A DNA stretch of 64,000 bases, from contig CADAIP010000006.1 in the NCBI GenBank assembly GCA_902787975.1, positions 11,193 to 75,192 on the forward strand. The letters are read 5' to 3'. The notes under the pieces are model-generated. The model was given only the letters and a program-made list of their open reading frames with translations. It searched no databases and was not told the DNA's origin. Positions 40,088-57,719 of the stretch are shown here, one piece after another. Position 1 is the stretch's first letter. Each line of letters opens with the position of its first letter. This DNA is from Oscillospiraceae bacterium (lineage in GTDB: Bacteria > Bacillota > Clostridia > Saccharofermentanales > Saccharofermentanaceae). The translations under genes and the position numbers were made by a program.

Positions 40088-40807
40088 TCACCCCTTCCAC
40101 GGCCTTTCTTTTCCAAGCCATCCATTTGCTTTCCAGTACTTGAAGTCGGTGTATTCGGGATTGTCTTTGCCAAGGCCTGTCTGCATCTTGCGGACGATGT
40201 GGAACTTCGCTTTGGCAAGTATTCCTGTGCGGGCGGGTTTGGTGTAATCGATCTTTGCCATTTTGGTGCTTAAGTTTGTGAGCTTTCTTGTGATCTTGTT
40301 CCTTTTCTTTTCGGGAATTTTTTCCCACTTGATGTCGCTCATGAGCTTGAAGCCGCAGGTCTTGATGTAAGTGATGCCCCACCAGGAGAGTGAGTCCTTG
40401 ATGTCTTTGGCTGTGCTGTTTTCGCCCGCGCCTAAGCACTGGGTGATAATGACGGCTCTTTTGCCGAACATCTCTTTTGCGGGGCGGTGAGGCATCCAGC
40501 GGTAGCCAAAGTGATCGAGCAGCGCTTTCATGGCGCCTGTCGTGTGCATCACGTAAGCAGGTGAAGTGAAGACCAGGAGGTCTGCTTCAAGAAGCGCCTT
40601 TTCGATCTTCTGAACTTTCTCTGCATCTTTACAGAGTTTCTGATCTTTGCCGAAGCACTGGATGCAGCCGATGCAAAAGCCTGGGCCGTCTTTGGGAAGA
40701 TAGAATTCCGTGATCTCTGCCTTGCCTTTGAATGGTTCAAGGAATGTTTCTTTTGCCAAGTATGTGATGCCCTTTTTCTCGGTGCCGTTGATTACTGTGA
40801 TCTTCAT
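40088..40807 (-). CDS. NADPH-dependent FMN reductase/flavodoxin family protein
   Basis: 'FCIGCIQC', 'LVFTSPAYVMHTTGAMKALLDH'. Confidence 0.85.
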   Translation of the reverse strand: MKITVINGTEKKGITYLAKETFLEPFKGKAEITEFYLPKDGPGFCIGCIQCFGKDQKLCKDAEKVQKIEKALLEADLLVFTSPAYVMHTTGAMKALLDHFGYRWMPHRPAKEMFGKRAVIITQCLGAGENSTAKDIKDSLSWWGITYIKTCGFKLMSDIKWEKIPEKKRNKITRKLTNLSTKMAKIDYTKPARTGILAKAKFHIVRKMQTGLGKDNPEYTDFKYWKANGWLGKERPWKG

Positions 40808-41424
40808 TATTTTGTTCTCCCGTAATGTCTGTTGAATTGTATTATGTGTTCGTCTAATGTCTTGAGTGCTTCGGGCTCTCTTTCAGGATCCCTGTCGCAC
40901 ATCGTAAGAAGGAAGTAGATCGGTGCGTAGAAGTGGAGGGTCATTATCTTCACGTTGTCAGTGTGAAGCATTCCTGCTGCTGCGACCATTCCGAGAAGCA
41001 TGCTCTGGTATGAGAGCGGATCATCGACATAAAGCTTTGTGTAAATCCCTGCAAGTTCCTTGCTGTTGAACTGCTCGATCGTGAGCATCTTCCGGAAGCG
41101 TTTGTTGTAGTCGTCGTGAAGATAGAAGAGGAAGAATTCGCGTCCGAGTTTGAGAAGATTTTCTTCAGACATGTTCTGATATATTTTCGAATCCACGGCA
41201 GCATCGGTACCGCTGATCTGAAGTGCTTTGGCCTGCTCAGCGAATCTGGAATTCATCAGATCGATTATGGCGTCGAAAATCGCTCTTTTATTTTTATAGT
41301 GTTTATATAATGACGGCGCCTTTATTCCGACCCGCTCAGCGATGTCGCCGACAAAGACATTCGCGTAACCTTTCTCGGAAAAGAGTGTAAGTGCTTCATC
41401 AAGAATTCTCTGCTTTGTATCCAT
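40807..41424 (-). CDS. TetR/AcrR family regulator
   Basis: 'TKQRILDEALTLFSEKGY...IAERVGIKAPSLYKHYKNK'. Confidence 0.93.
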   Translation of the reverse strand: MDTKQRILDEALTLFSEKGYANVFVGDIAERVGIKAPSLYKHYKNKRAIFDAIIDLMNSRFAEQAKALQISGTDAAVDSKIYQNMSEENLLKLGREFFLFYLHDDYNKRFRKMLTIEQFNSKELAGIYTKLYVDDPLSYQSMLLGMVAAAGMLHTDNVKIMTLHFYAPIYFLLTMCDRDPEREPEALKTLDEHIIQFNRHYGRTK

Positions 41425-41523: not shown

Positions 41524-41559
41524 AAACCTATTGACTTAGTGGGTTAATGGAATTAATAT
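41524..41559 (+). promoter_or_regulatory. Rrf2-like sulfur box over the iscS promoter
   Basis: AAACCTA-TTGACTTAG-TGGGTTA; TTGACT-N17-TAATAT. Confidence 0.75.
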
Positions 41560-41593: not shown

Positions 41594-42778
41594 ATGATTT
41601 ATGCTGACAACGCGGCAACCACTCCAATGAGTGAAGCTGCAATCAACACAATGACAACTCTTATCAGAGAAACTTACGGAAATCCTTCAAGCCTTTACGA
41701 GTTCGGCCAGAAGGCAAAGGAAGTATTGGAGCAGGCAAGAGAAGATACTGCTGCGCTTATCGGTGCTGATGCCAAGGAAATAATATTCACATCAGGCGGA
41801 AGCGAAGCTGACAACCAGGCGATCATATCAGCTGCAAAGGCAGGCGCGCTCAAGGGCAAGAAGCACATCATCTCAAGCAAGTTCGAACACCATGCTGTTC
41901 TTCACACATTGAAAAAGCTCGAGAATGAAGGATTCGAAGTTACACTACTTGATGTTCACGAGAACGGTATCATCGATCCTTCTGAAGTAGAAGCAGCCAT
42001 CCGTGAAGATACCTGCCTGGTAACGATCATGTACGCAAATAATGAGATCGGTACAATTCAGGACATTAAAGGTATCGGTGCAGTCTGCAGAGCTAAGGGC
42101 GTTATCTTCCACACAGATGCAGTTCAGGCAATAGGACACCTTAAGATCAATGTAGTTGAAGAGAATATCGACATGCTCTCAGCATCCGCACACAAGTTCC
42201 ACGGACCTAAGGGCGTAGGATTCCTTTATGCAAGAAAAGGCATAAGGCTTGCAAATCTTATCGAAGGCGGCGCTCAGGAGAAGGGCAAGAGAGCTGGTAC
42301 GGAGAATGTTCCGGGAATCGCTGCGATGGTTACTGCTCTTAAGGAAGAAGTTGCAAATATCGATAAGAACACAGCGCACATCCTTCCTATCAGAAACAAA
42401 ATAATCGAAGGTCTTAAGGAGATCCCTCATTCAGCATTAAATGGCGATGAGGAAAGAAGACTTCCGAGCAACGTTAACTTTTGCTTCGAAGGTATCGAAG
42501 GCGAATCACTTTTGCTCTTACTTGACGATAAGGGTATCGCAGCATCTTCGGGAAGCGCATGCACATCAGGATCACTGGATCCTTCACACGTTCTTCTTGC
42601 GATCGGCAGAGTACACGATGTTGCACACGGTTCATTGAGACTCAGTCTCGGCGAAGATGTTACTGAGGAAGAAGCCGATTACATCATTAAGGCTGTTAAG
42701 GAAGTTGTTGAATACCTGAGAGGTTTTTCGCCGGTATGGAGAGATCTCGTAGCAGGAAAAACACAGTTTATTTTATAA
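41594..42778 (+). CDS. iscS: Cysteine desulfurase
   Basis: 'YADNAATT', 'FHTDAVQ', 'SAHKFHGPKG', 'SSGSACTSGS'. Confidence 0.95.
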   Translation: MIYADNAATTPMSEAAINTMTTLIRETYGNPSSLYEFGQKAKEVLEQAREDTAALIGADAKEIIFTSGGSEADNQAIISAAKAGALKGKKHIISSKFEHHAVLHTLKKLENEGFEVTLLDVHENGIIDPSEVEAAIREDTCLVTIMYANNEIGTIQDIKGIGAVCRAKGVIFHTDAVQAIGHLKINVVEENIDMLSASAHKFHGPKGVGFLYARKGIRLANLIEGGAQEKGKRAGTENVPGIAAMVTALKEEVANIDKNTAHILPIRNKIIEGLKEIPHSALNGDEERRLPSNVNFCFEGIEGESLLLLLDDKGIAASSGSACTSGSLDPSHVLLAIGRVHDVAHGSLRLSLGEDVTEEEADYIIKAVKEVVEYLRGFSPVWRDLVAGKTQFIL

Positions 42779-42790
42779 GGGGGCATCAAC

Positions 42791-43168
42791 ATGGCTTTAT
42801 ATAGTGAGAAAGTAATGGATCATTTCAGAAATCCGAGAAACGTAGGCGTTCTTGAAGACGCAAACGGTGTAGGCACAGTAGGTAACGCTAAGTGCGGGGA
42901 CATCATGAAGATGTATCTCAAGATCGAAGACGATATAGTCAAGGACGTTAAGTTCGAGACATTCGGATGCGGCAGCGCTATCGCATCAAGCTCAATGGCT
43001 ACAGAGCTCATCAAGGGCAAGCCTGTTGAAGAAGCAAGACAGCTTACAAACAAGGCTGTAGCAGAAGCTCTTGACGGACTTCCGGATTATAAGATGCACT
43101 GCTCAGTCCTTGCGCAGGAAGCTATTGAAGCTGCACTTAAGGACTACGAATCAAGACAGGAAGAATAA
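42791..43168 (+). CDS. iscU: Fe-S cluster scaffold (IscU/NifU N-terminal type)
   Basis: 'YSEKVMDHFRNPRNVG', 'CGD', 'FGCGSAIAS', 'KMHCS'. Confidence 0.95.
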   Translation: MALYSEKVMDHFRNPRNVGVLEDANGVGTVGNAKCGDIMKMYLKIEDDIVKDVKFETFGCGSAIASSSMATELIKGKPVEEARQLTNKAVAEALDGLPDYKMHCSVLAQEAIEAALKDYESRQEE

Positions 43169-43189: not shown

Positions 43190-43224
43190 TAACCTATTGA
43201 CACAGTAGGTTTATGTGGCATAAT
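43190..43224 (+). promoter_or_regulatory. Rrf2-like sulfur box over a sigmaA promoter
   Basis: TAACCTA-TTGACACAG-TAGGTTT; TTGACA-N16-(TGn)CATAAT. Confidence 0.8.
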
Positions 43225-43259
43225 AAGTCCATGCCATAGAAAATCAAGGAGGCGTAAAA

Positions 43260-43358
43260 ATGTTTAGGATCATGTGTTGTCGAATGCATTATACAAGGGC
43301 TGAATCGGCCATGGCGTTTGACTGCACGAATATGCGCCTTGTCGATGTACGATGTTGA
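43260..43358 (+). CDS. Cys/Met-rich leader peptide 1 (32 aa)
   Basis: AAGGAGG RBS; MFRIMCCRMHYTRAESAMAFDCTNMRLVDVRC*. Confidence 0.8.
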   Translation: MFRIMCCRMHYTRAESAMAFDCTNMRLVDVRC

Positions 43359-43384
43359 CTTCAATATAAAACATCAAACTCCAC

Positions 43385-43419
43385 AGCCCGGGAAACTCGC
43401 TCATCCCGGGCTTTTTTAT
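43385..43419 (+). terminator. Attenuator terminator of leader 1
   Basis: AGCCCGGGA-N10-TCCCGGGCT-TTTTTAT, 28 nt before the mccB-like ATG. Confidence 0.85.
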
Positions 43420-43446
43420 GCAAATTACGAAAAGAGGTAAATAAAC

Positions 43447-44601
43447 ATGACTTACAAAAGAAATTCTTTACTTATTCACGGCGGTATCGATGGAGATGAG
43501 ACAACAGGAGCAGTAAATGTTCCCGTTTACCAGACATCAACATATAAGCAGGACGGCCTTGGCAAGAACAGAGGCTGGGAATATTCCAGAACCGGCAACC
43601 CGACAAGAGCAGCACTCGAGAAGCTGATCGCAGATCTTGAAGAAGGACAGTACGGTCTCGCATTTGCATCAGGTCTTGCAGCGATCAACACAGTGCTTTC
43701 TCTCTTCAAATCAGGTGACAAGCTCATCGTATCTGATAACATCTACGGCGGAACATTCCGTATTCTCGATAACGTTTTCAAGAACTTCAATATCACATAT
43801 AAGATCGTTGATACATCTGATCTTGAAGTAGTCGAAAATGCTATCGACGACGATGTAAAAGCAATCTACATCGAGACGCCTGCAAACCCTCTTCTTACCA
43901 TCACTGACATCGAAGCAGTATCAAAGATCGGAAAGAAGCATAACAAACTCGTTATCGTCGATAACACATTCCTCACACCTTATCTGCAGAGACCTTTGAC
44001 TCTTGGTGCTGACATCGTTATCCACAGCGGTACAAAATATCTTGGCGGACATTCAGATACGATCTCCGGATTTGTAGTAGTAAACGACAAGCAGCTTGCT
44101 GACAGACTTTACTATCTCCAGAATGCGATCGGCGGCGTACTCGCTCCCTGGGACAGCTTCCTTATCATCAGAGGAATCAAGACATTGGGTGTGCGTATGG
44201 ACAGACATGTGGCGAACGCAGGCAAGATTGCAAAGTGGCTTTCTGAGAGTGGCTACGTATCCAAGGTTTACTATCCCGGACTTGAATCAGATCCCGGCTA
44301 TGAGATCCAGAAGAAGCAGGCTGACGGAGCAGGCGCGATGATCTCATTTGTTCTTAACGACAAGTACGATTACAAGAAATTTTTCGAGCAGCTTCAGCTT
44401 ATAACGCTCGCAGAGAGTTTGGGCGGTGTTGAGTCACTCGTATGCCATCCCGCAACGATGACTCACGCAGCGATCCCTGCTGACATCAGAAAAGAAGTCG
44501 GCATCGTTGATGAGCTCATCAGACTTTCAGTAGGCATTGAGGACGTTGATGATCTTATCGAAGATCTGAAACAGGCAATCGAGAATTCAGTTAAAGCTTG
44601 A
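43447..44601 (+). CDS. mccB: Cystathionine gamma-lyase/synthase (MccB/MetB family)
   Basis: 'YSRTGNPTR', 'ETPANP', 'DNTF', 'HSGTKYLGGHSD', 'AESLGGVESL'; paired with an MccA-like gene. Confidence 0.8.
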   Translation: MTYKRNSLLIHGGIDGDETTGAVNVPVYQTSTYKQDGLGKNRGWEYSRTGNPTRAALEKLIADLEEGQYGLAFASGLAAINTVLSLFKSGDKLIVSDNIYGGTFRILDNVFKNFNITYKIVDTSDLEVVENAIDDDVKAIYIETPANPLLTITDIEAVSKIGKKHNKLVIVDNTFLTPYLQRPLTLGADIVIHSGTKYLGGHSDTISGFVVVNDKQLADRLYYLQNAIGGVLAPWDSFLIIRGIKTLGVRMDRHVANAGKIAKWLSESGYVSKVYYPGLESDPGYEIQKKQADGAGAMISFVLNDKYDYKKFFEQLQLITLAESLGGVESLVCHPATMTHAAIPADIRKEVGIVDELIRLSVGIEDVDDLIEDLKQAIENSVKA

Positions 44602-44609
44602 GGTGAAAT

Positions 44610-45524
44610 ATGAATAACGTATATGACAATATCAGAGAAATGATCGGCAAAACTCCGATCATCAAGATCAATCACATGGGCGTCAAGCCCGGTGTAAATA
44701 TCTATGCAAAACTCGAATTGATGAATCCCGCAGGAAGCGTTAAAGACCGTGTAGGCGTTTACATGATCGATGATGCAAAGAAGAGAGGTCTTCTCAAAGA
44801 AGGCGGAACGATCATTGATGCTACCGCAGGAAACACAGGTATCGGAATCGCGGTTGCCGCGCTTAACCAGGGATACAGGGTAATCTTCACGGTGCCTGAG
44901 AAATTCTCTGTTGAGAAGCAGATTGTAATGAAGGCTTTGGGCGCAGAGATAGTCCACACGTCAAGAGAAGGCGGAATGTTAGGCGCGGAAGAAAAAGCAG
45001 AAGAGATGCTTAAGACGATTCCGGATTCCATTTCATTAAGACAGTTCAGAAACCCCGCAAATCCTCTGGCTCATTATGAGACAACAGGTCCTGAGATCTA
45101 TTCACAGCTTGACGGCAAGATTGATTATTTTGTTGCAGGCGCAGGAAGCGGAGGAACATTCTCGGGAGTGGTTAAGTATCTGAAAGAGCAGAACCCCGGT
45201 GTCGTAGGTGTTCTTGCAGATCCTTACGGATCAACGATCGGCGGCGGTGAGCATTTCGATTACAACATCGAAGGAATAGGCAACGATTTCATCGCTGACA
45301 CGATGGATATCACATTGGTGGATAAGGTCATAAAGATCAACGATGACGAGGCATTTGCAGCTTCAAGAAATCTCGCAAAGCATGAAGGCATCCTTGCAGG
45401 ATCTTCATCCGGTGCGGCACTTGCTGCGGCACTCAAGCTTGCGGAAGAAATCGATGAAGGAAACATAGTAACGGTTTTCCCTGACAGAGGAGACAGATAT
45501 TTAAGCAAAGGATTATATGACTGA
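44610..45524 (+). CDS. Cysteine synthase family protein (MccA/CysK-like; probable OAS-dependent cystathionine beta-synthase)
   Basis: 'NPAGSVKDR', 'ATAGNTGIG', 'GAGSGGT', 'IEGIG', 'GSSSGA'. Confidence 0.85.
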   Translation: MNNVYDNIREMIGKTPIIKINHMGVKPGVNIYAKLELMNPAGSVKDRVGVYMIDDAKKRGLLKEGGTIIDATAGNTGIGIAVAALNQGYRVIFTVPEKFSVEKQIVMKALGAEIVHTSREGGMLGAEEKAEEMLKTIPDSISLRQFRNPANPLAHYETTGPEIYSQLDGKIDYFVAGAGSGGTFSGVVKYLKEQNPGVVGVLADPYGSTIGGGEHFDYNIEGIGNDFIADTMDITLVDKVIKINDDEAFAASRNLAKHEGILAGSSSGAALAAALKLAEEIDEGNIVTVFPDRGDRYLSKGLYD

Positions 45525-46531
45525 TGGAAACGGTATATGAATTAAAAAACGTATCCAAGATATATAAGAACGACGGTAAAGAATTCACGGCGTTAAAAGA
45601 CGTAAGCCTTACGATAAACGAAGGAGAGATCTTCGGCATCATTGGAATGAGCGGCGCGGGCAAATCAACACTTGTACGTACGCTTAACAGACTTGAGGAA
45701 GTATCTTCAGGTTCGGTCGAGTTCTATGGAAAAGATCTTGCAACACTTAAGCCGGCGGAACTTCGCTCTGTGCGTCACAGCATCTCAATGATCTTCCAGG
45801 GATTTAACCTCGTTAACCAGCGCACCGTTATCCAGAACGTTGAACAGTCCATGAAGATAATCGGCCTTTCCCGTGCCGTCCGCCGCGAAAAGGCAAAGCA
45901 GATGCTTGAAGTCGTAGGTCTTCTTGAGAAGGCAAATGAATATCCCGCGCGTCTTTCGGGCGGCCAGAAGCAGAGAGTTGCAATAGCAAGAGCACTTGCC
46001 GTAGACCCGAAGGTGCTTTTGTGCGACGAGGCAACGAGCGCACTTGACCCGAAGATCACAAACGAGATACTGGATCTTTTGAAGAAGATCAACGAAGAAA
46101 GAAAACTTACGATAGTCATCATCACTCACGAGATGAGCGTGGTCGAGAAGATCTGCGACCGCGTTGCGATCATTGACAATGGTACGCTTGCTGAAGTCGG
46201 AGAGGTAAAAGAGGTATTCTCAAATCCCCAGTCGAAAGCAGCGAAAAAACTGGTCTTCCCGAGCAATCCTTTTGATCCGTCTGACGAGAGCGGACAGATC
46301 GTAAGGATCGTTTTCGACGGTACGCAGTCGAATGTTCCGTTCATTGCAAATCTCGTCGAAGAAACAGGTCTTAAAGTAAATATCTTAAGTGCAAATACAA
46401 GAAGTGTCGGCGGTATCGGCTACGGCCAGATGATCATCGAGCTTCCTGAGTTGGCAGAAGACCGCCAGACGGTCATCGACTTCTTCAAAAAAGGCGGACT
46501 GTCTGTATCGGAGGTGAACAGAAATGAGTGA
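45524..46531 (+). CDS. metN: Methionine ABC transporter ATP-binding protein
   Basis: [16 protein letters not shown], 'CDEATSALDP', C-terminal NIL domain 'VNILSAN'. Confidence 0.92.
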   Translation: METVYELKNVSKIYKNDGKEFTALKDVSLTINEGEIFGIIGMSGAGKSTLVRTLNRLEEVSSGSVEFYGKDLATLKPAELRSVRHSISMIFQGFNLVNQRTVIQNVEQSMKIIGLSRAVRREKAKQMLEVVGLLEKANEYPARLSGGQKQRVAIARALAVDPKVLLCDEATSALDPKITNEILDLLKKINEERKLTIVIITHEMSVVEKICDRVAIIDNGTLAEVGEVKEVFSNPQSKAAKKLVFPSNPFDPSDESGQIVRIVFDGTQSNVPFIANLVEETGLKVNILSANTRSVGGIGYGQMIIELPELAEDRQTVIDFFKKGGLSVSEVNRNE

Positions 46532-47177
46532 TTATATTAGAGATGCGATCATAACGGGTGTCTGGGAGACGTTTGTAATGACGTTCTTCGCTTCGCTTTT
46601 TTCATATGCGGTCGGAATGCCTTTGGGAGTCCTGCTCTATGCGACTTCAAAAGGACGCCTGCTCGAGAACAGGCCTGTTAACTTTATTATCGGAGCCATC
46701 GTAAACATCACGCGTTCATTGCCGTTCCTGATCCTGCTCGTGCTCCTCATCCCGTTTACGAGATTTATCGTAGGCCAGTCCATCGGTACCACGGCTGCGA
46801 TCGTACCTCTAACGATAGGCGCTATCCCGATCGTTGCGAGAATGGTCGAGTCCTCGCTTAATGAGGTGCAGCCCGGCATTATCGAAGCGGCAACTTCCAT
46901 GGGCGCATCGCCTTTATATACGATAATTCACTTTATTATTCCTGAAGCAACACCTTCACTTCTTCAGGGCGGTGCGATCAATGTGGCAACCGTATTGGGA
47001 TACTCTGCCATGGCAGGTGTTATCGGAGGCGGCGGACTTGGTGCGATCGCCCTGCAGTACGGCTACTACCGCTACCAGAAAGACGTTCTCTTTACGACCG
47101 TTACATTGCTGATAATCATGGTAATGCTTATTCAGGAGATCGGTATCTTCATATCCAAGAAGAACAGGAAGACATAA
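46524..47177 (+). CDS. metI: Methionine ABC transporter permease
   Basis: 'RSLPFLILLVLLIPFTRFIVG.SIG', 'YSAMAGVIGGGGLG'. Confidence 0.92.
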   Translation: MSDYIRDAIITGVWETFVMTFFASLFSYAVGMPLGVLLYATSKGRLLENRPVNFIIGAIVNITRSLPFLILLVLLIPFTRFIVGQSIGTTAAIVPLTIGAIPIVARMVESSLNEVQPGIIEAATSMGASPLYTIIHFIIPEATPSLLQGGAINVATVLGYSAMAGVIGGGGLGAIALQYGYYRYQKDVLFTTVTLLIIMVMLIQEIGIFISKKNRKT

Positions 47178-53356: not shown

Positions 53357-53902
53357 ATGATTTTATCTGACAGAACAATACTTAAGATGCTCGAAGAAAA
53401 AACACTTACTATCGAGCCTGTTACAAAAGAACAGATACAGCCTGCAAGTGTCGATATCAGATTAGGCCGCACTTTCAGTGTCGTTGACGATACACCTTCA
53501 AGCGTTATCACTCTCGAAAATGAGATCAAATATAAGACCATCACGACTGATACTTATCTCATCATGCCGGGTCAGTTTGTTCTTGCTACCACGATGGAAT
53601 ATTTCGAGCTTCCCGATAACCTCACCGCATTTGTGGAAGGCAGAAGTTCGCTCGGCAGAATGGGTCTTTTCATCCAGAATGCCGGATGGGTAGATCCCGG
53701 ATTTAAAGGTGAGATAACACTTGAACTTTATAACGCAAACAGATGCGCTATTGAACTTAAGGCGGGAAGAAGAGTAGGCCAGCTCGTTTTCGCTGAGATG
53801 GATGATCATGCTCTTAATCCTTATGACGGAAAGTACCAGGGCCAGAAGGGCGCTACGGGCTCTCGCGTCTTTAAAGATGCCGAAAACCCATTGACAAAAT
53901 AG
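53357..53902 (+). CDS. dcd: dCTP deaminase
   Basis: '[11 protein letters not shown]', '[10 protein letters not shown]', '[14 protein letters not shown]', 'YQGQ'. Confidence 0.95.
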
Positions 53903-53919
53903 GGAAATGATGTTAACTT
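53884..53919 (+). promoter_or_regulatory. Rrf2-like sulfur box and sigmaA promoter embedded in the dcd 3' end
   Basis: AAACCCA-TTGACAAAA-TAGGGAA; TTGACA-N17-(TGn)TAACTT. Confidence 0.6.
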
Positions 53920-53949: not shown

Positions 53950-54030
53950 ATGAAACGCATTACGGCCACTATGATCTGTATGTGCTGTACTGAAGTCGTC
54001 CTCCCGCATATGACCGGAGTGATCTGTTAA
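53950..54030 (+). CDS. Cys/Met-rich leader peptide 2 (26 aa)
   Basis: AAGGAGG RBS; MKRITATMICMCCTEVVLPHMTGVIC*. Confidence 0.78.
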   Translation: MKRITATMICMCCTEVVLPHMTGVIC

Positions 54031-54069
54031 ACGCATGATTAAGATCACAAACTGAATAAAGGTTACTGT

Positions 54070-54103
54070 ACGGGAGTTCTGATGAATTCCCGTTATTGTT
54101 TTT
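54070..54103 (+). terminator. Attenuator terminator of leader 2
   Basis: ACGGGAGTTC-tgat-GAATTCCCGT-TATTGTTTTT. Confidence 0.75.
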
Positions 54104-54134: not shown

Positions 54135-54698
54135 ATGAGCAGTAAAGACAATCATAAGAACAATTTGAAGAAGATAGCATACGCAGGTGTGCTTGCCGCA
54201 TTGGTATTCGTAGGTACCGAACTTCACATTCCGACAGCAATCGGACACATCAATTTAGGTGACCTCGTAATACTTGTAAGTTCGTATATCTTAGGACCAT
54301 TCGCATTCGTTCCCGCAGCTATCGGATCGACGCTTGCAGATCTTCTTGCAGGTTATCCCCAGTACGCAGTAGCAACATTCCTGATCAAGGGTATCATGGG
54401 ACTCGTTGCAGGACTTTTGCTTAAGAGAAACAGGGAAGGCAAGACTTCATTTTTCAGAAAGCTCTCCGTCTCTTTAGTTGCAGAGCTCATCATGATCGCA
54501 GGTTACTTCGCATTTGAATCACTGCCGTTTATGTATGGTGTTGAAGCAGCATTGGGCTCTGTAATCCCTAATGGTATCCAGGCAAGTGCTGCAATCGTAG
54601 GAGCAGTTCCGCTTATGTATGTGAAGCTTTTCGACAAATACCAGCTCTCGCAGAATAGCGAAATTCATAAGAATAAAGAAAAAACAGCAGTATCTTAA
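54135..54698 (+). CDS. ECF transporter S component (intact)
   Basis: 'LAALVFVGTELHIPTAIGHINLGD', 'AIGSTLADLLAGYPQY', 'IKGIMG'; AGGAG RBS. Confidence 0.88.
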   Translation: MSSKDNHKNNLKKIAYAGVLAALVFVGTELHIPTAIGHINLGDLVILVSSYILGPFAFVPAAIGSTLADLLAGYPQYAVATFLIKGIMGLVAGLLLKRNREGKTSFFRKLSVSLVAELIMIAGYFAFESLPFMYGVEAALGSVIPNGIQASAAIVGAVPLMYVKLFDKYQLSQNSEIHKNKEKTAVS

Positions 54699-54756: not shown

Positions 54757-54792
54757 AAACCTATTGACACGGTAGGTTTGTAGTAGTAAAGT
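54757..54792 (+). promoter_or_regulatory. Rrf2-like sulfur box (perfect arms) over a sigmaA promoter
   Basis: AAACCTA-TTGACACGG-TAGGTTT; TTGACA-N17-TAAAGT. Confidence 0.82.
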
Positions 54793-54823: not shown

Positions 54824-54946
54824 ATGTATAGAACAGATAACAGAACAACAGTCATGATGTGTTGTCGAATGTTCAGCTCCCGGGTGCGCAATATGGCACA
54901 GGGCGCAGGATACAATTCCTCACGCCTTGAGATAGATCGATGTTAA
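54824..54946 (+). CDS. Cys/Met-rich leader peptide 3 (40 aa)
   Basis: AAAGGAGG RBS; MYRTDNRTTVMMCCRMFSSRVRNMAQGAGYNSSRLEIDRC*. Confidence 0.8.
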   Translation: MYRTDNRTTVMMCCRMFSSRVRNMAQGAGYNSSRLEIDRC

Positions 54947-54975
54947 AGCAGTAACTTGCATTTGAAGATATGCCA

Positions 54976-55012
54976 TGCGCCCGGGAGATAAATCTGACCC
55001 GGGCATTTTTAT
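54976..55012 (+). terminator. Attenuator terminator of leader 3
   Basis: GCCCGGG-N12-CCCGGGC-ATTTTTAT. Confidence 0.78.
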
Positions 55013-55072: not shown

Positions 55073-55939
55073 ATGAAGAACATATTTAAGAAGGCAATCG
55101 CCGCAGGACTTTTACTCGCAATCACAGGCTCATTTGCAGCTTGCTCACAGGCTAAAGCAACAACAGTTAACGCAGGAACAGTAGGAAGTGACACACAGGT
55201 AACAGAGAATGTCGTTCTCACGGTAGGCGCAAACATCACACCTCACGCAGAGATCTTGGAAGTTGCAAAGCCGATCCTCGCAGAGCAGGGAATCACACTC
55301 GAGATCGTAAGACTCGAAGATTCCGTTACACCTAACACAGGCGTTATCGAAGGCTCACTTGACGCAAACTATTTCCAGCACGTTCCTTACCTCGAACAGT
55401 TCAATAAAGAAAACGGTTCAGATCTTGTTTCAGTTGGCGCAGTCCACTATGAACCCTTCGGCATCTATGCAGGCAGAGTAAAAGATCTTAAGGACCTCCA
55501 GGATGGCGCAGTGATCGCAGTTCCCAACAACGTAACAAACGAAGCAAGAGCACTTCTCCTCCTCGCACAGGAAGGCATCATCAAGCTCAAGGACGATGCA
55601 GGAATCAATGCAACAGTAGAAGACATCGTAGAGAATCCTCTTAACATCCAGTTCAAGGAACTCGCACCTGAGCAGCTCGTTGCAGCACTTCCTGACGTAG
55701 ATGTAGCAGTCATTAACGGTAACTACGCAATCGAGGGCGGTCTGCACGTAAGCGAGGCACTCGCAGTAGAGGCTAACGACGGTCTTGCAGCACAGACATA
55801 CGGAAACATCATTGCAACATCACCTGATAAGGCAAACGATCCTGCAGTTAAGGCTCTTGTTGAAGTTCTTCAGGGACCTGAAGTTGCAAAGTTCATCGAA
55901 GATACATATGACGGTGCAGTAGTACCTCTCTTCGGTTAA
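55073..55939 (+). CDS. metQ: Methionine ABC transporter substrate-binding lipoprotein (MetQ/NlpA)
   Basis: Lipobox 'FAAC'; 'TPHAEILE', 'DANYFQHVPYL', 'HYEPFGIY', 'VPNNVTNEARALLLL'. Confidence 0.92.
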   Translation: MKNIFKKAIAAGLLLAITGSFAACSQAKATTVNAGTVGSDTQVTENVVLTVGANITPHAEILEVAKPILAEQGITLEIVRLEDSVTPNTGVIEGSLDANYFQHVPYLEQFNKENGSDLVSVGAVHYEPFGIYAGRVKDLKDLQDGAVIAVPNNVTNEARALLLLAQEGIIKLKDDAGINATVEDIVENPLNIQFKELAPEQLVAALPDVDVAVINGNYAIEGGLHVSEALAVEANDGLAAQTYGNIIATSPDKANDPAVKALVEVLQGPEVAKFIEDTYDGAVVPLFG

Positions 55940-55963: not shown

Positions 55964-57124
55964 ATGATCGGATTTGAGTATTACAACCCCGCGAAAATAG
56001 TTTTCGGCGAGGACAGCGAAAAGAAATTGAAGTCTCTTTTATCGCAACATAAAGTCAGTTCACTCCTATTGGTATACAGCGGAGACTTCATCAAAACACT
56101 GGGCATTTACGACGTCATTACTGACGCAGTAAAGGAACTCGGGATCAAGTTCTCGGAGAGCGGTGAAGTAGTACCAAATCCGTCCATCGAGCTTGTCAGA
56201 AAACTTGTCGCAAAGGGCAAGGAAGATAAAGTTGACTTCGTTCTCGCAGTCGGCGGTGGCAGCTCCATCGACACTGCAAAGGCGATAGCTCTCGGTATAC
56301 CGTACGATGGCGATGTCTGGGATTTCTTCGACAAGGGTGTTACTCCCGAGCAGGTCCTTGGTATCGGAGTAATCGCAACAACGGCATCGAGCGGTTCCGA
56401 GACGTCCAACTGCGCGATCCTCTCATACGGTGAGTGGAAGAAGGGTTTTGAAGATGACCGCATCATCCCCAAGTTCGCGATCATGAACCCCAAGTACACA
56501 GTAAACCTTCCTTCATATCAGACTTTCGTCGGAATCGCAGATGTGTTGTCACACCTTCTCGAAAGATATTTCTCTGATGAGAAATATTCCGATACGACAG
56601 ACTACCTTATCGAAGGTGCCGTAAGAGCATTGCTCGTAAATGCAGACAGACTTATCGAAGACCCTACGAACATCAACGCAAGAGCAGAGATACAGTGGCT
56701 CGCATCAGTAGCACACAATAATTTCCTTGATGCCGGAAGATCGGCAGACTGGGGATCACACCGTATCGAGCACGAACTCTCTGCACAATACAACATCACA
56801 CACGGAGAAGGAATGGCGATCGTTTTCACGGCTTGGACTAAGTACATTGCTGACATCAAGCCCTGGAGACTTGCACTCCTCGCAAGCAGAGTCTACGGAA
56901 AAGATCCGTACGACTATTCAGAGAAAGAACGCGCGCTTCTTTTATCAGACGAACTCGAGAAGTTCTTTAAGAAACTTGGGATCAAGACTCATCTTTCCGA
57001 ACTCGGAATCGGTGACAAGGATTTCGAAGTAATGGCACAGCGTGCAACAAAGGGCGGCAACGTCGGACACTATGTTCCGCTCGATTCACAGAAGATAGTA
57101 GAGATCTTAAAGATCGCACTATAA
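55964..57124 (+). CDS. Iron-containing alcohol dehydrogenase (BdhA/YqhD-like)
   Basis: 'FEYYNPAKIVFG', 'GGGSSIDTAK', 'DVLSHLLERY', 'HRIEHELSA', 'HGEG'. Confidence 0.9.
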   Translation: MIGFEYYNPAKIVFGEDSEKKLKSLLSQHKVSSLLLVYSGDFIKTLGIYDVITDAVKELGIKFSESGEVVPNPSIELVRKLVAKGKEDKVDFVLAVGGGSSIDTAKAIALGIPYDGDVWDFFDKGVTPEQVLGIGVIATTASSGSETSNCAILSYGEWKKGFEDDRIIPKFAIMNPKYTVNLPSYQTFVGIADVLSHLLERYFSDEKYSDTTDYLIEGAVRALLVNADRLIEDPTNINARAEIQWLASVAHNNFLDAGRSADWGSHRIEHELSAQYNITHGEGMAIVFTAWTKYIADIKPWRLALLASRVYGKDPYDYSEKERALLLSDELEKFFKKLGIKTHLSELGIGDKDFEVMAQRATKGGNVGHYVPLDSQKIVEILKIAL

Positions 57125-57164: not shown

Positions 57165-57719
57165 ATGGCCAGAATCAAATTGGTAGAACAGAACGAAGCA
57201 ACAGGTGCAGAGAAGGAACGCTATGATGAGCTCGCAGGAAGAAATGCAGTTACCAACATGAAGAAGGGACTTCTTAACGATGCAGCAACATATGATGCAT
57301 ACATGGCTTGGTACACTTCATGGAAGAGACTCGTTGAAGTAATTGGCGAAAAGGATGCGATCCTCTACGCTCACAAGATCTCTACAACAAACTCATGCCA
57401 GCTCTGCTCACTCTTCTTCATCAGTGACGTTAAGGGCTTGGGTCTCGATCCGGCTAACCTCGTTTACGATGAGAAGGAGACAGTCCTTGCTGAACTCGCT
57501 GAGCAGTATGTAAAGAACCCGACAGCAGTATCTGATGAACTTTTCGACAAGCTCAGAAAGTTCTTCAACGATCAGGAGCTCGTTGTCATCGTCGGCTTCG
57601 CAGGTCAGATGATCGCAACAAACAACTTCAACGCAGTATTCAAGATCGACGTTGATAAGCGCCTCCTCCCGTTGCTCGATGAGTTCAAGCCCGCAACATG
57701 GAGAGAGAACATCAAGTAA
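57165..57719 (+). CDS. AhpD/carboxymuconolactone decarboxylase-like protein
   Basis: 'ISTTNSCQLC' CxxC; 'DELFDKLRKFFNDQELVVIV'. Confidence 0.7.
   Translation: MARIKLVEQNEATGAEKERYDELAGRNAVTNMKKGLLNDAATYDAYMAWYTSWKRLVEVIGEKDAILYAHKISTTNSCQLCSLFFISDVKGLGLDPANLVYDEKETVLAELAEQYVKNPTAVSDELFDKLRKFFNDQELVVIVGFAGQMIATNNFNAVFKIDVDKRLLPLLDEFKPATWRENIK

Follow-up and report, generated by a model that had tools for sequence, protein, structure and literature searches.

We analysed a 64,000-nucleotide stretch of DNA from an Oscillospiraceae bacterium (GenBank assembly GCA_902787975.1, contig CADAIP010000006.1, positions 11,193 to 75,192), hereafter the window, in which the four genes mccB-mccA-metN-metI (43447-47177) stand behind a short leader that encodes a cysteine-rich peptide and ends in a hairpin. 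This leader, leader 1, is the subject of the present analysis. An earlier reading of the DNA from its letters alone (the sequence-only reading) had proposed that the peptide and the hairpin together gate the operon. We found the gene order of the operon repeated behind the leader in related loci. The parts of the locus are as follows, numbered from the first letter of the window.

43197-43224, + strand: sigma-70-type promoter of leader 1, TTGACA-16-TGgCATAAT, with an extended -10 TG and 11 of 12 matches
43246-43252, + strand: Shine-Dalgarno (SD) sequence AAGGAGG of the leader open reading frame (ORF), 7 nucleotides (nt) 5' of the ATG, read from the sequence
43260-43358, + strand: leader peptide ORF MFRIMCCRMHYTRAESAMAFDCTNMRLVDVRC, 32 codons plus stop, from translation
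43272-43286, + strand: proposed sensing codons AUG-UGU-UGU-CGA-AUG (M5 C6 C7 R8 M9), from modelled stalls and codon usage
43274-43327, + strand: hairpin P1 (segments 1:2), in which 43274-43287 (the Cys codons plus CGAAUGC) pairs with 43314-43327
43297-43302, + strand: candidate antiterminator 5' strand GGGCUG (segment 2), from the masked fold and homologous to a covarying family helix
43344-43375, + strand: small hairpin CGAUGUUGA, with the last Arg-Cys codons and the stop codon, -9.1 kcal/mol, z = -3.5
43384-43393, + strand: segment 3 CAGCCCGGGA, where the antiterminator 3' strand CAGCCC (43384-43389) and the terminator 5' arm (43385-43393) overlap
43385-43417, + strand: intrinsic terminator, composed of the 5' arm AGCCCGGGA (43385-43393), a 10-nt loop, the 3' arm and U6
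43404-43412, + strand: terminator 3' arm UCCCGGGCU, also given as TCCCGGGCT; the U6 tract is 43412-43417
43447-44601, + strand: mccB-like cystathionine gamma-lyase gene, NCBIfam match
44610-45524, + strand: mccA/cysK-like gene, NCBIfam match
45524-46531, + strand: metN, NCBIfam match
46524-47177, + strand: metI, NCBIfam match

The promoter, on which the sequence-only reading is silent, puts the predicted transcript start of leader 1 near 43231. Sequence and translation bore out the 32-codon ORF with four Cys and five Met behind AAGGAGG that had been reported earlier: Cys occupies positions 6, 7, 22 and 32, with Met at positions 1, 5, 9, 18 and 25, and the stop codon is at 43356. The hairpin likewise proved to be a convincing intrinsic terminator, with a 9-base-pair (bp) GC-rich stem of -17.4 kcal/mol (z = -4.1) whose stability none of 200 shuffles matched. 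A simple terminator scan passed over it, the loop limit of the scan being 8 nt against the 10-nt loop here. The mccB ATG at 43447 lies 30 nt past the terminator and its SD sequence (43433-43439) is unpaired in the predicted fold; without antitermination the operon would presumably be silent.

We then modelled how a ribosome on the leader ORF would alter the fold. P1 has a free energy of -22.2 kcal/mol (z = -3.4), and its apical stem (43298-43302:43306-43310) contains GGGCUG, which begins 16 nt past the second Cys codon (Cys7). Since equilibrium folding with the whole terminator cannot show switching, the terminator winning at every ribosome position in leader 1, we used a transcript ending at the terminator loop, before the 3' arm, and represented a ribosome with its A site on Cys7 by masking 43263-43290. 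The minimum-energy fold of this masked RNA contained exactly GGGCUG:CAGCCC. In the free RNA, or with the ribosome at the stop codon, GGGCUG remained buried in the P1 apical stem and the terminator 5' arm was free, so that the folding check proposed by the sequence-only reading came out in its favour. The probability that the terminator 5' arm is captured was 0.39 in free RNA, 0.6-0.7 with the A site anywhere from I4 to M9, and 0.3-0.5 beyond, which places the productive stall window at the I-M-C-C-R-M codons. In free RNA the leader SD region (43249-43256) additionally pairs with 43333-43340 inside the ORF, an arrangement that would limit re-initiation on the leader ORF.

We examined whether this architecture recurs by fetching MccB relatives, one genome per species, which gave 80 loci. 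The best match, at 100% identity, came from a rumen metagenome-assembled genome (MAG) labelled Oscillospiraceae bacterium SIG422, and near relatives were labelled Saccharofermentans, Mageeibacillus, Ruminococcaceae or Clostridiales. In 27 of the 80 loci, mccB was preceded by a short SD-led ORF containing a Cys run (for example MKFMCCRMSYSRAMDCCCLNMIRCR, MKGSVQTFRRNCCCCCE and MFNQSMSNRICCCCCCRD, and MTQNLMNICCCCWGRCRTGD in Fibrobacter). We next applied a strict scan, demanding an SD sequence, an ATG ORF of 8-60 codons with a CC pair and, at most 120 nt away, a hairpin with a T run, to both strands of 1.4 Mb comprising the window and the 80 related loci. It returned 47 matches, compared with 0 in reversed or complement-only controls of the same 1.4 Mb. 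An ORF plus terminator alone could be chance; given these controls, the whole architecture is not. The Cys runs comprise two to six consecutive codons and the remaining peptide varies, and this conservation of the run across dozens of species strengthens the view of the ORF as a leader peptide.

Of the 47 matches, 45 precede sulfur-amino-acid or uptake genes: mccB-mccA(-metN), an operon of S-adenosylmethionine (SAM)-dependent methyltransferase-mccB-mccA, metQ, the S component of an energy-coupling factor (ECF) transporter, and operons with LuxS, adenosylhomocysteinase, an AgcS carrier or an SsuA-like binding protein. Judged from these neighbours, the leaders appear tied to the route Met -> SAM -> homocysteine -> cystathionine -> Cys and to the uptake systems. 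Scanning metagenomes with the pattern ATGTGTTGTCGAATG-N55-85-CGATGTTRA yielded 96 stretches with 98 leader copies and about 86 different peptides. The downstream gene was metQ in 51 copies, mccB in 32, and mccA, an SsuA-like gene or an iron-containing alcohol dehydrogenase (Fe-ADH) gene in one each; a small unidentified ORF came first in 3, and 9 stood at contig ends. Thus, all metagenome copies with a readable, identifiable downstream gene precede metQ, mccB or a related gene. The leader ORFs have not been called as proteins, as an exact look-up in a collection of 15 billion proteins gave no match, and an NCBIfam scan of five leader peptides returned none. In the window itself, scanning for small SD-led ORFs with Cys pairs revealed two leaders besides leader 1, here leaders 2 and 3.

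The same design also occurs in six MAGs of Fibrobacter, which is not a Firmicute (L024, L030, L031, L035, L037 and L039), before an mccB 68% identical to that of the window. These loci hold a Cys-run leader, a matching antiterminator and a terminator, and L031 has in addition a palindrome similar to the operator-like site described below. The whole Fibrobacter cassette was probably transferred horizontally.

For each leader, we compared the 45 nt after the Cys run with the 5' arm of its own terminator. In most leaders the best complementary segment begins 8-19 nt past the Cys run, just beyond a stalled ribosome, and it tracks the terminator: GGGCUG:CAGCCC in leader 1, CUCCCG:CGGGAG in leader 2, CAUUCUUCGC:GCGAGGAAUG in locus L014 and CUUGUUUCG:CGAAGCAAG in locus L011. 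Across 22 non-redundant leaders the energies of pairing with the own arm summed to -319 kcal/mol, against -232 +/- 13 kcal/mol for permuted arms, and 0 of 20000 permutations reached the observed sum. In an 86-row alignment of the metagenome family, with 85 distinct sequences, where the antiterminator occupies columns 27-37 with 130-140 and 43-48 with 123-129, 88.7% of its cells were paired, compared with at most 45.5% in slid registers. Changes on both sides were seen in 11 of 17 pairs, and double-change cells numbered 86 against 28.4 +/- 3.9 in shuffles (0 of 500 reached the observed value); at pair 36-131, for example, 47 sequences have AU and 20 have GC. The terminator helix was 91.8% paired in this alignment and 92-93% across both this and the 14-sequence alignment of the closest clade. 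The GGGCTG/CAGCCC antiterminator of the sequence-only reading coincides with this strongly covarying family helix, and to that extent it stands, although its six base pairs taken alone are not significant.

The 14-sequence clade provided evidence for the OFF state. Its OFF-state structure (P1, apical stem, stop hairpin and terminator) was 72.6% paired, compared with at most 45.6% in slid registers, and 0 of 500 shuffles reached the observed pairing percentage or covariation score. The P1 helix, which is subfamily-specific, was 74% paired, with six pairs changing on both sides. In the mccB subfamily, to which leader 1 belongs, the antiterminator has the form (C)GGGCUGU:ACAGCCC(G), with 6-8 bp, and the terminator is always favoured at equilibrium. 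In about 60 of the 86 family members, leader 3 included, the naked full-length leader instead favours the antiterminator; in such antiterminator-dominant copies, termination would have to be imposed by translating ribosomes.

The metagenome leaders bear on the idea that the ORF product itself matters, either through nascent-peptide arrest by a small molecule (as in TnaC) or as a functional Cys-rich peptide. Such a function would predict the conservation seen beyond MCCRM, with Arg at +4 in 85 of 85 leaders and Ser at +3 in 73 of 85, and the retention of the Arg in leader 1 despite a CGG-to-AGG change that weakens RNA pairing. However, the conserved residues coincide with RNA helices: Ser-Arg-Ala/Val (UCC-CGG-GCA/GUG) is the antiterminator strand and Met-Ala (AUGGC) the second helix. 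Switches between Ala and Val (GCA/GUG) are compensated in the non-coding partner strand, which indicates selection on the RNA helix rather than on the peptide. Peptide length and sequence, moreover, differ freely between lineages, and neither a protein family model match nor a protein on record was found. We therefore regard a role for the peptide as very improbable.

The sequence parts of the leader, their conservation, the covariation in the family, the exclusive link to sulfur-amino-acid genes and the geometry of the model were all seen directly. Leader 1 has the SD-led ORF, the clustered conserved Cys codons and the terminator of a ribosome-mediated attenuator, with antiterminator covariation at the level of the family and a fitting stall geometry in modelling. 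We conclude, with a probability of roughly 0.85, that it is a transcription attenuator of the trp/his type that senses the charging of Cys-tRNA, and probably of Met-tRNA as well. The observations of the sequence-only reading are confirmed, and its attenuator interpretation is supported. In the proposed mechanism, transcription would start near 43231 and a ribosome would load at the strong SD sequence. When tRNA-Cys is charged and plentiful, the ribosome would reach the stop codon at 43356, P1 would re-form behind it and lock GGGCUG, and the terminator (43385-43417) would fold and stop transcription 30 nt before mccB. When Cys-tRNA is scarce, and probably also when Met-tRNA is, the ribosome would stall on codons 5-9, covering the 5' strand of P1 and leaving GGGCUG exposed. 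GGGCUG could then capture CAGCCC as it emerges from the polymerase, delaying terminator folding, and RNA polymerase would read on into mccB-mccA-metN-metI. Ribosome stalling, its effect on termination in vivo and the size of that effect are what we infer from the model.

Control of comparable genes by other RNA elements has a precedent, as ubiG-mccBA of Clostridium acetobutylicum is under a Cys T-box and an S-box (PMC2566862). That a SAM riboswitch or a Cys T-box controls the terminator of leader 1, with the ORF incidental, is nevertheless the least probable of the explanations we weighed and has next to no chance of being correct. No Rfam family reached threshold in the 64 kb. Between 43100 and 43500, the T-box (RF00230) and SAM riboswitches were not listed even at E up to 10, and the best model there, Trp_leader (RF00513), scored 17.3 bits (E = 0.64, threshold 41 bits) on the terminator part only. 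The leader is also only about 185 nt long and is nearly filled by the ORF.

A second layer of control may act on the promoter, for which the following features are relevant.

41594-42778: nifS, upstream of leader 1
42791-43168: nifU, after nifS and before the leader 1 promoter
43192-43210, + strand: palindromic operator-like site ACCTATTGACACAGTAGGT, overlapping the -35 hexamer of the leader 1 promoter
41526-41544, 43192-43210, 53886-53904 and 54759-54777: ACCTATTGACAnnGTAGGT sites, 4 in the window against 0.07 expected
40807-41424, - strand: TetR-family gene, divergent from nifS, where relatives carry an Rrf2-like gene

The palindrome ACCTATTGACAnnGTAGGT covers the -35 hexamers of all three leader promoters and of the nifS promoter, and many related loci have it again ahead of leaders and of nifS. 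An Rrf2/CymR-like gene stands divergent beside it in several relatives, an observation made with an approximate query sequence and best taken as a lead. The palindrome is probably the operator of a cysteine or iron-sulfur regulator and a probable site for an Rrf2/CymR-like repressor; no Rrf2 match was found in the 64-kb window. The attenuator is then probably layered on this promoter operator, which would add repressor control. The TetR-family gene was rejected as a general regulator of the operator, being present only in the same species (L001). Between the nifU stop (43168) and the leader promoter (43197) there is no terminator, so nifSU transcripts may run into leader 1 and stop at its terminator, which may serve both units.

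Several results weigh against the attenuator interpretation. The 6-bp duplex of leader 1 (about -13 kcal/mol) is equalled by 13.7% of shuffles, which justifies the caution of the sequence-only reading that so short a core needs folding support. Pairing of the antiterminator spares GGGA of the terminator arm, which could act as a toehold. Once the full terminator has been made, its state is favoured by 6.9 kcal/mol even when a ribosome occupies Cys7, so that any read-through must be kinetic, as in classical attenuators, and switching may be modest. Within the 14-sequence close clade the antiterminator shows no covariation, because its core is the invariant palindromic CCGGG. Public RNA contigs reveal only transcription of the leader and some RNA spanning the terminator. 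Among these contig sets, X1-X4 resemble DNA or mixed libraries and X8, X9, X11 and X12 have a depth of 2-7 and yield no 3' ends; in two metatranscriptomes the first bases of RNA contigs are 43249 and 43251, which is weak evidence for the predicted promoter. Finally, in Bacillus subtilis transcription reportedly outruns translation (a finding attributed to Johnson et al. in Nature in 2020). If the same is true of this Clostridia lineage, it would work against a mechanism that depends on coupling.

Leader 1 could instead be a decayed copy of a real family, one that has mostly lost switching, with the hairpin acting as a fixed partial terminator that also ends the nifSU transcript and regulation coming chiefly from the repressor site at the promoter. 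Its antiterminator is the shortest of the subfamily, with 6 bp against 7-8 bp in loci L113, L117, L122, L123 and L153, because CGG became AGG and GUA became GAA. The terminator's advantage at equilibrium throughout the mccB subfamily, the missing terminator behind nifU and the operator common to four promoters would also fit such decay. We consider it unlikely, since L001 and three or more independent metagenome contigs (L131, L137 and L174) keep the 6-bp version unchanged, the ORF, Cys codons, P1 and spacing are all intact, and switching persists in the masked fold. An antiterminator weaker than the terminator is, moreover, also a feature of classical attenuators such as trp, a further point against decay.

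Within the attenuator interpretation, we asked what the Met codons contribute. The sequence-only reading had singled out MCCRM as the unit, Met included, and the enrichment of Met codons beside Cys codons agrees with this. In 37 non-redundant leaders Met accounts for 9.8% of non-initiator residues, compared with 2.1% in the window genes. Of the non-Cys residues no more than two positions from a Cys, 23% are Met, compared with 6% of those farther away (Fisher p = 2e-12), and an MC or CM pair occurs in 26 of the 37. The residue before the searched MCCRM, a position left free in the search pattern, is Met in 42 of 85 metagenome leaders. In 17 window genes Met and Cys constitute 2.1% and 1.1% of codons, UGU occurs 10 times against 47 for UGC, and CGA is 1 of 183 Arg codons; AUG-UGU-UGU-CGA-AUG therefore uses rare Cys and Arg codons. 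The ORF end CGAUGUU(G/A)A (43350-43358) reads Arg-Cys-stop, again with the rare CGA codon. Its CGATGTT is nearly invariant in the closest clade, and in many copies AUGUU is complementary to an AACAU immediately 5' of the antiterminator 3' strand.

These figures raise the possibility of a dual sensor, in which the Met codons are regulatory too and shortage of either sulfur amino acid opens the attenuator. Modelled stalls at M5 and M9 were as productive as those at C6 and C7, and dual sensing would fit an operon in which the MetNI importer is encoded as well. Conversely, Cys runs lack neighbouring Met codons in several lineages (L010, L011 and L029), inducing the Met-consuming MccAB pathway under Met shortage makes little physiological sense, and the AUG codons could serve RNA pairing or act as internal starts. 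The leaders are also mutually related, so the statistics overstate their independence. On balance the two sides nearly cancel, and we lean slightly away from dual sensing.

Leader 1 resembles the proteobacterial leaders trpL, hisL, leuL, pheL and thrL in having a short, SD-led ORF in which codons for the sensed amino acid cluster. As in classical attenuators, it has segments pairing as 1:2, 2:3 and 3:4, an intrinsic terminator, release of segment 2 by a stalled ribosome, and pairing of the leader ribosome-binding site with a downstream segment. It differs in sensing Cys with Met codons alongside, in its rumen Clostridia host, in its longer ORF (32-40 codons) ending about 25 nt before the terminator, and in having no sequence or Rfam relationship to those leaders. 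Most family members differ further in that their antiterminator beats the terminator, which is not so in leader 1. Among cysteine systems, Cys-rich leader ORFs without terminators were first predicted in Actinobacteria (PMC1262725), and those of mycobacteria, polycysteine leaderless small ORFs, were shown to act on translation (bioRxiv 10.1101/834739); the authors of the latter stated that attenuation for cysteine mediated by upstream ORFs was previously undescribed. Those ORFs likewise tie sulfur or cysteine genes to cysteine supply through consecutive upstream Cys codons, but they are leaderless, their Cys tract pairs with the downstream SD sequence, and they have no intrinsic terminator. 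Leader 1 is SD-led, its Cys codons pair within P1, and it has a terminator and an antiterminator, which places it outside that class.

A counterpart in design is the uORFC-8-2 motif upstream of cysS in Rhodobacterales, a predicted terminator-type Cys attenuator (PMC8632094) and so far the only case, itself a prediction, of a cysteine-sensing terminator/antiterminator attenuator. Like leader 1 it places two tandem Cys codons in the first stem and has a U run at its terminator; unlike leader 1 it is alphaproteobacterial, confined to cysS, without sequence similarity and without reported Met codons. The Cys T-box with antisense S-box of C. acetobutylicum ubiG-mccBA (PMC2566862) governs the same Met-to-Cys genes through antitermination that depends on the charging of tRNA-Cys; in that system the uncharged tRNA itself binds the leader RNA, whereas in leader 1 a ribosome would read the charging. 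In Firmicutes, leader-peptide attenuators have been documented for histidine only, in the Bacillus cereus group, Peptostreptococcaceae and Erysipelotrichales (PMC2965389, PMC9413887). These His leaders, which can replace T-boxes, give classical attenuators a Firmicutes precedent, but concern another amino acid, other genes and other lineages. We found no description of the present leader family in the literature searched, and no model of it in Rfam or NCBIfam. Leader 1 is thus a classical attenuator in kind, one of the weaker switches in a large and apparently undescribed family in rumen bacteria.

Extending this to the family as a whole is more tentative. A widespread, undescribed sulfur-amino-acid attenuator family of rumen and gut Clostridia and Fibrobacter could read both Cys-tRNA and Met-tRNA, with translation-dependent termination in most copies; we hold this to be possible, though doubtful. 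The sensing may then be done by mixed Met/Cys codon clusters placed on rare codons, and termination perhaps brought about by a convoy of ribosomes on the unusually long leader ORF. If so, transcription and translation would be tightly coupled in these Firmicutes, unlike the uncoupled picture of B. subtilis, and a ribosome could keep pace with RNA polymerase in these organisms. Firmicutes have few leader-peptide attenuators of any kind, this task being ascribed there to T-boxes and riboswitches. The family would fill in the control of Met-to-Cys conversion and Met uptake in rumen fibre degraders (Saccharofermentans-like bacteria, Ruminococcus, Lachnospiraceae and Fibrobacter), would offer a compact cysteine-responsive switch for anaerobes, and would correct annotation, in which the leader ORFs have so far gone uncalled as genes.

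The two sister leaders of the window comprise the following features.

53950-54030: leader 2 ORF MKRITATMICMCCTEVVLPHMTGVIC, before the gene of an ECF-transporter S component (54135-54698)
54070-54093: leader 2 terminator ACGGGAGUUC/GAAUUCCCGU, -15.4 kcal/mol
54824-54946: leader 3 ORF MYRTDNRTTVMMCCRMFSSRVRNMAQGAGYNSSRLEIDRC (MYRTDNRTTVMMCCRMFSS...DRC), before metQ (55073-55939)
54979-55004: leader 3 terminator, -16.2 kcal/mol

In leader 2, whose region as a whole spans 53950-54103, CUCCCG (54001-54006) begins 12 nt past the Cys pair and complements CGGGAG (54071-54076). Leader 3, with a region spanning 54824-55010, has a long antiterminator in which 54877-54898 pairs with 54971-54987, and its naked RNA prefers this antiterminator (P about 0.9), unlike leader 1. 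Both leader 1 and leader 3 contain ATGTGTTGTCGAATG, have CGATGTTRA where the ORF ends and carry the promoter palindrome.

Sharing of the leader also offers a regulatory hint to the function of several unknown genes. If the broader family reading is true, the shared leader would mark the ECF S component, the Fe-ADH with its 184-amino-acid partner and a DUF362 protein as having sulfur-amino-acid functions. Behind metQ in the window lie the Fe-ADH gene (55964-57124) and then the gene of a 184-amino-acid protein without Pfam match (57165-57719). This trio of metQ, Fe-ADH and the 184-amino-acid protein stands behind a leader in about 40 metagenome contigs (among L081-L176), and its recurrence suggests a role in sulfur-amino-acid metabolism.

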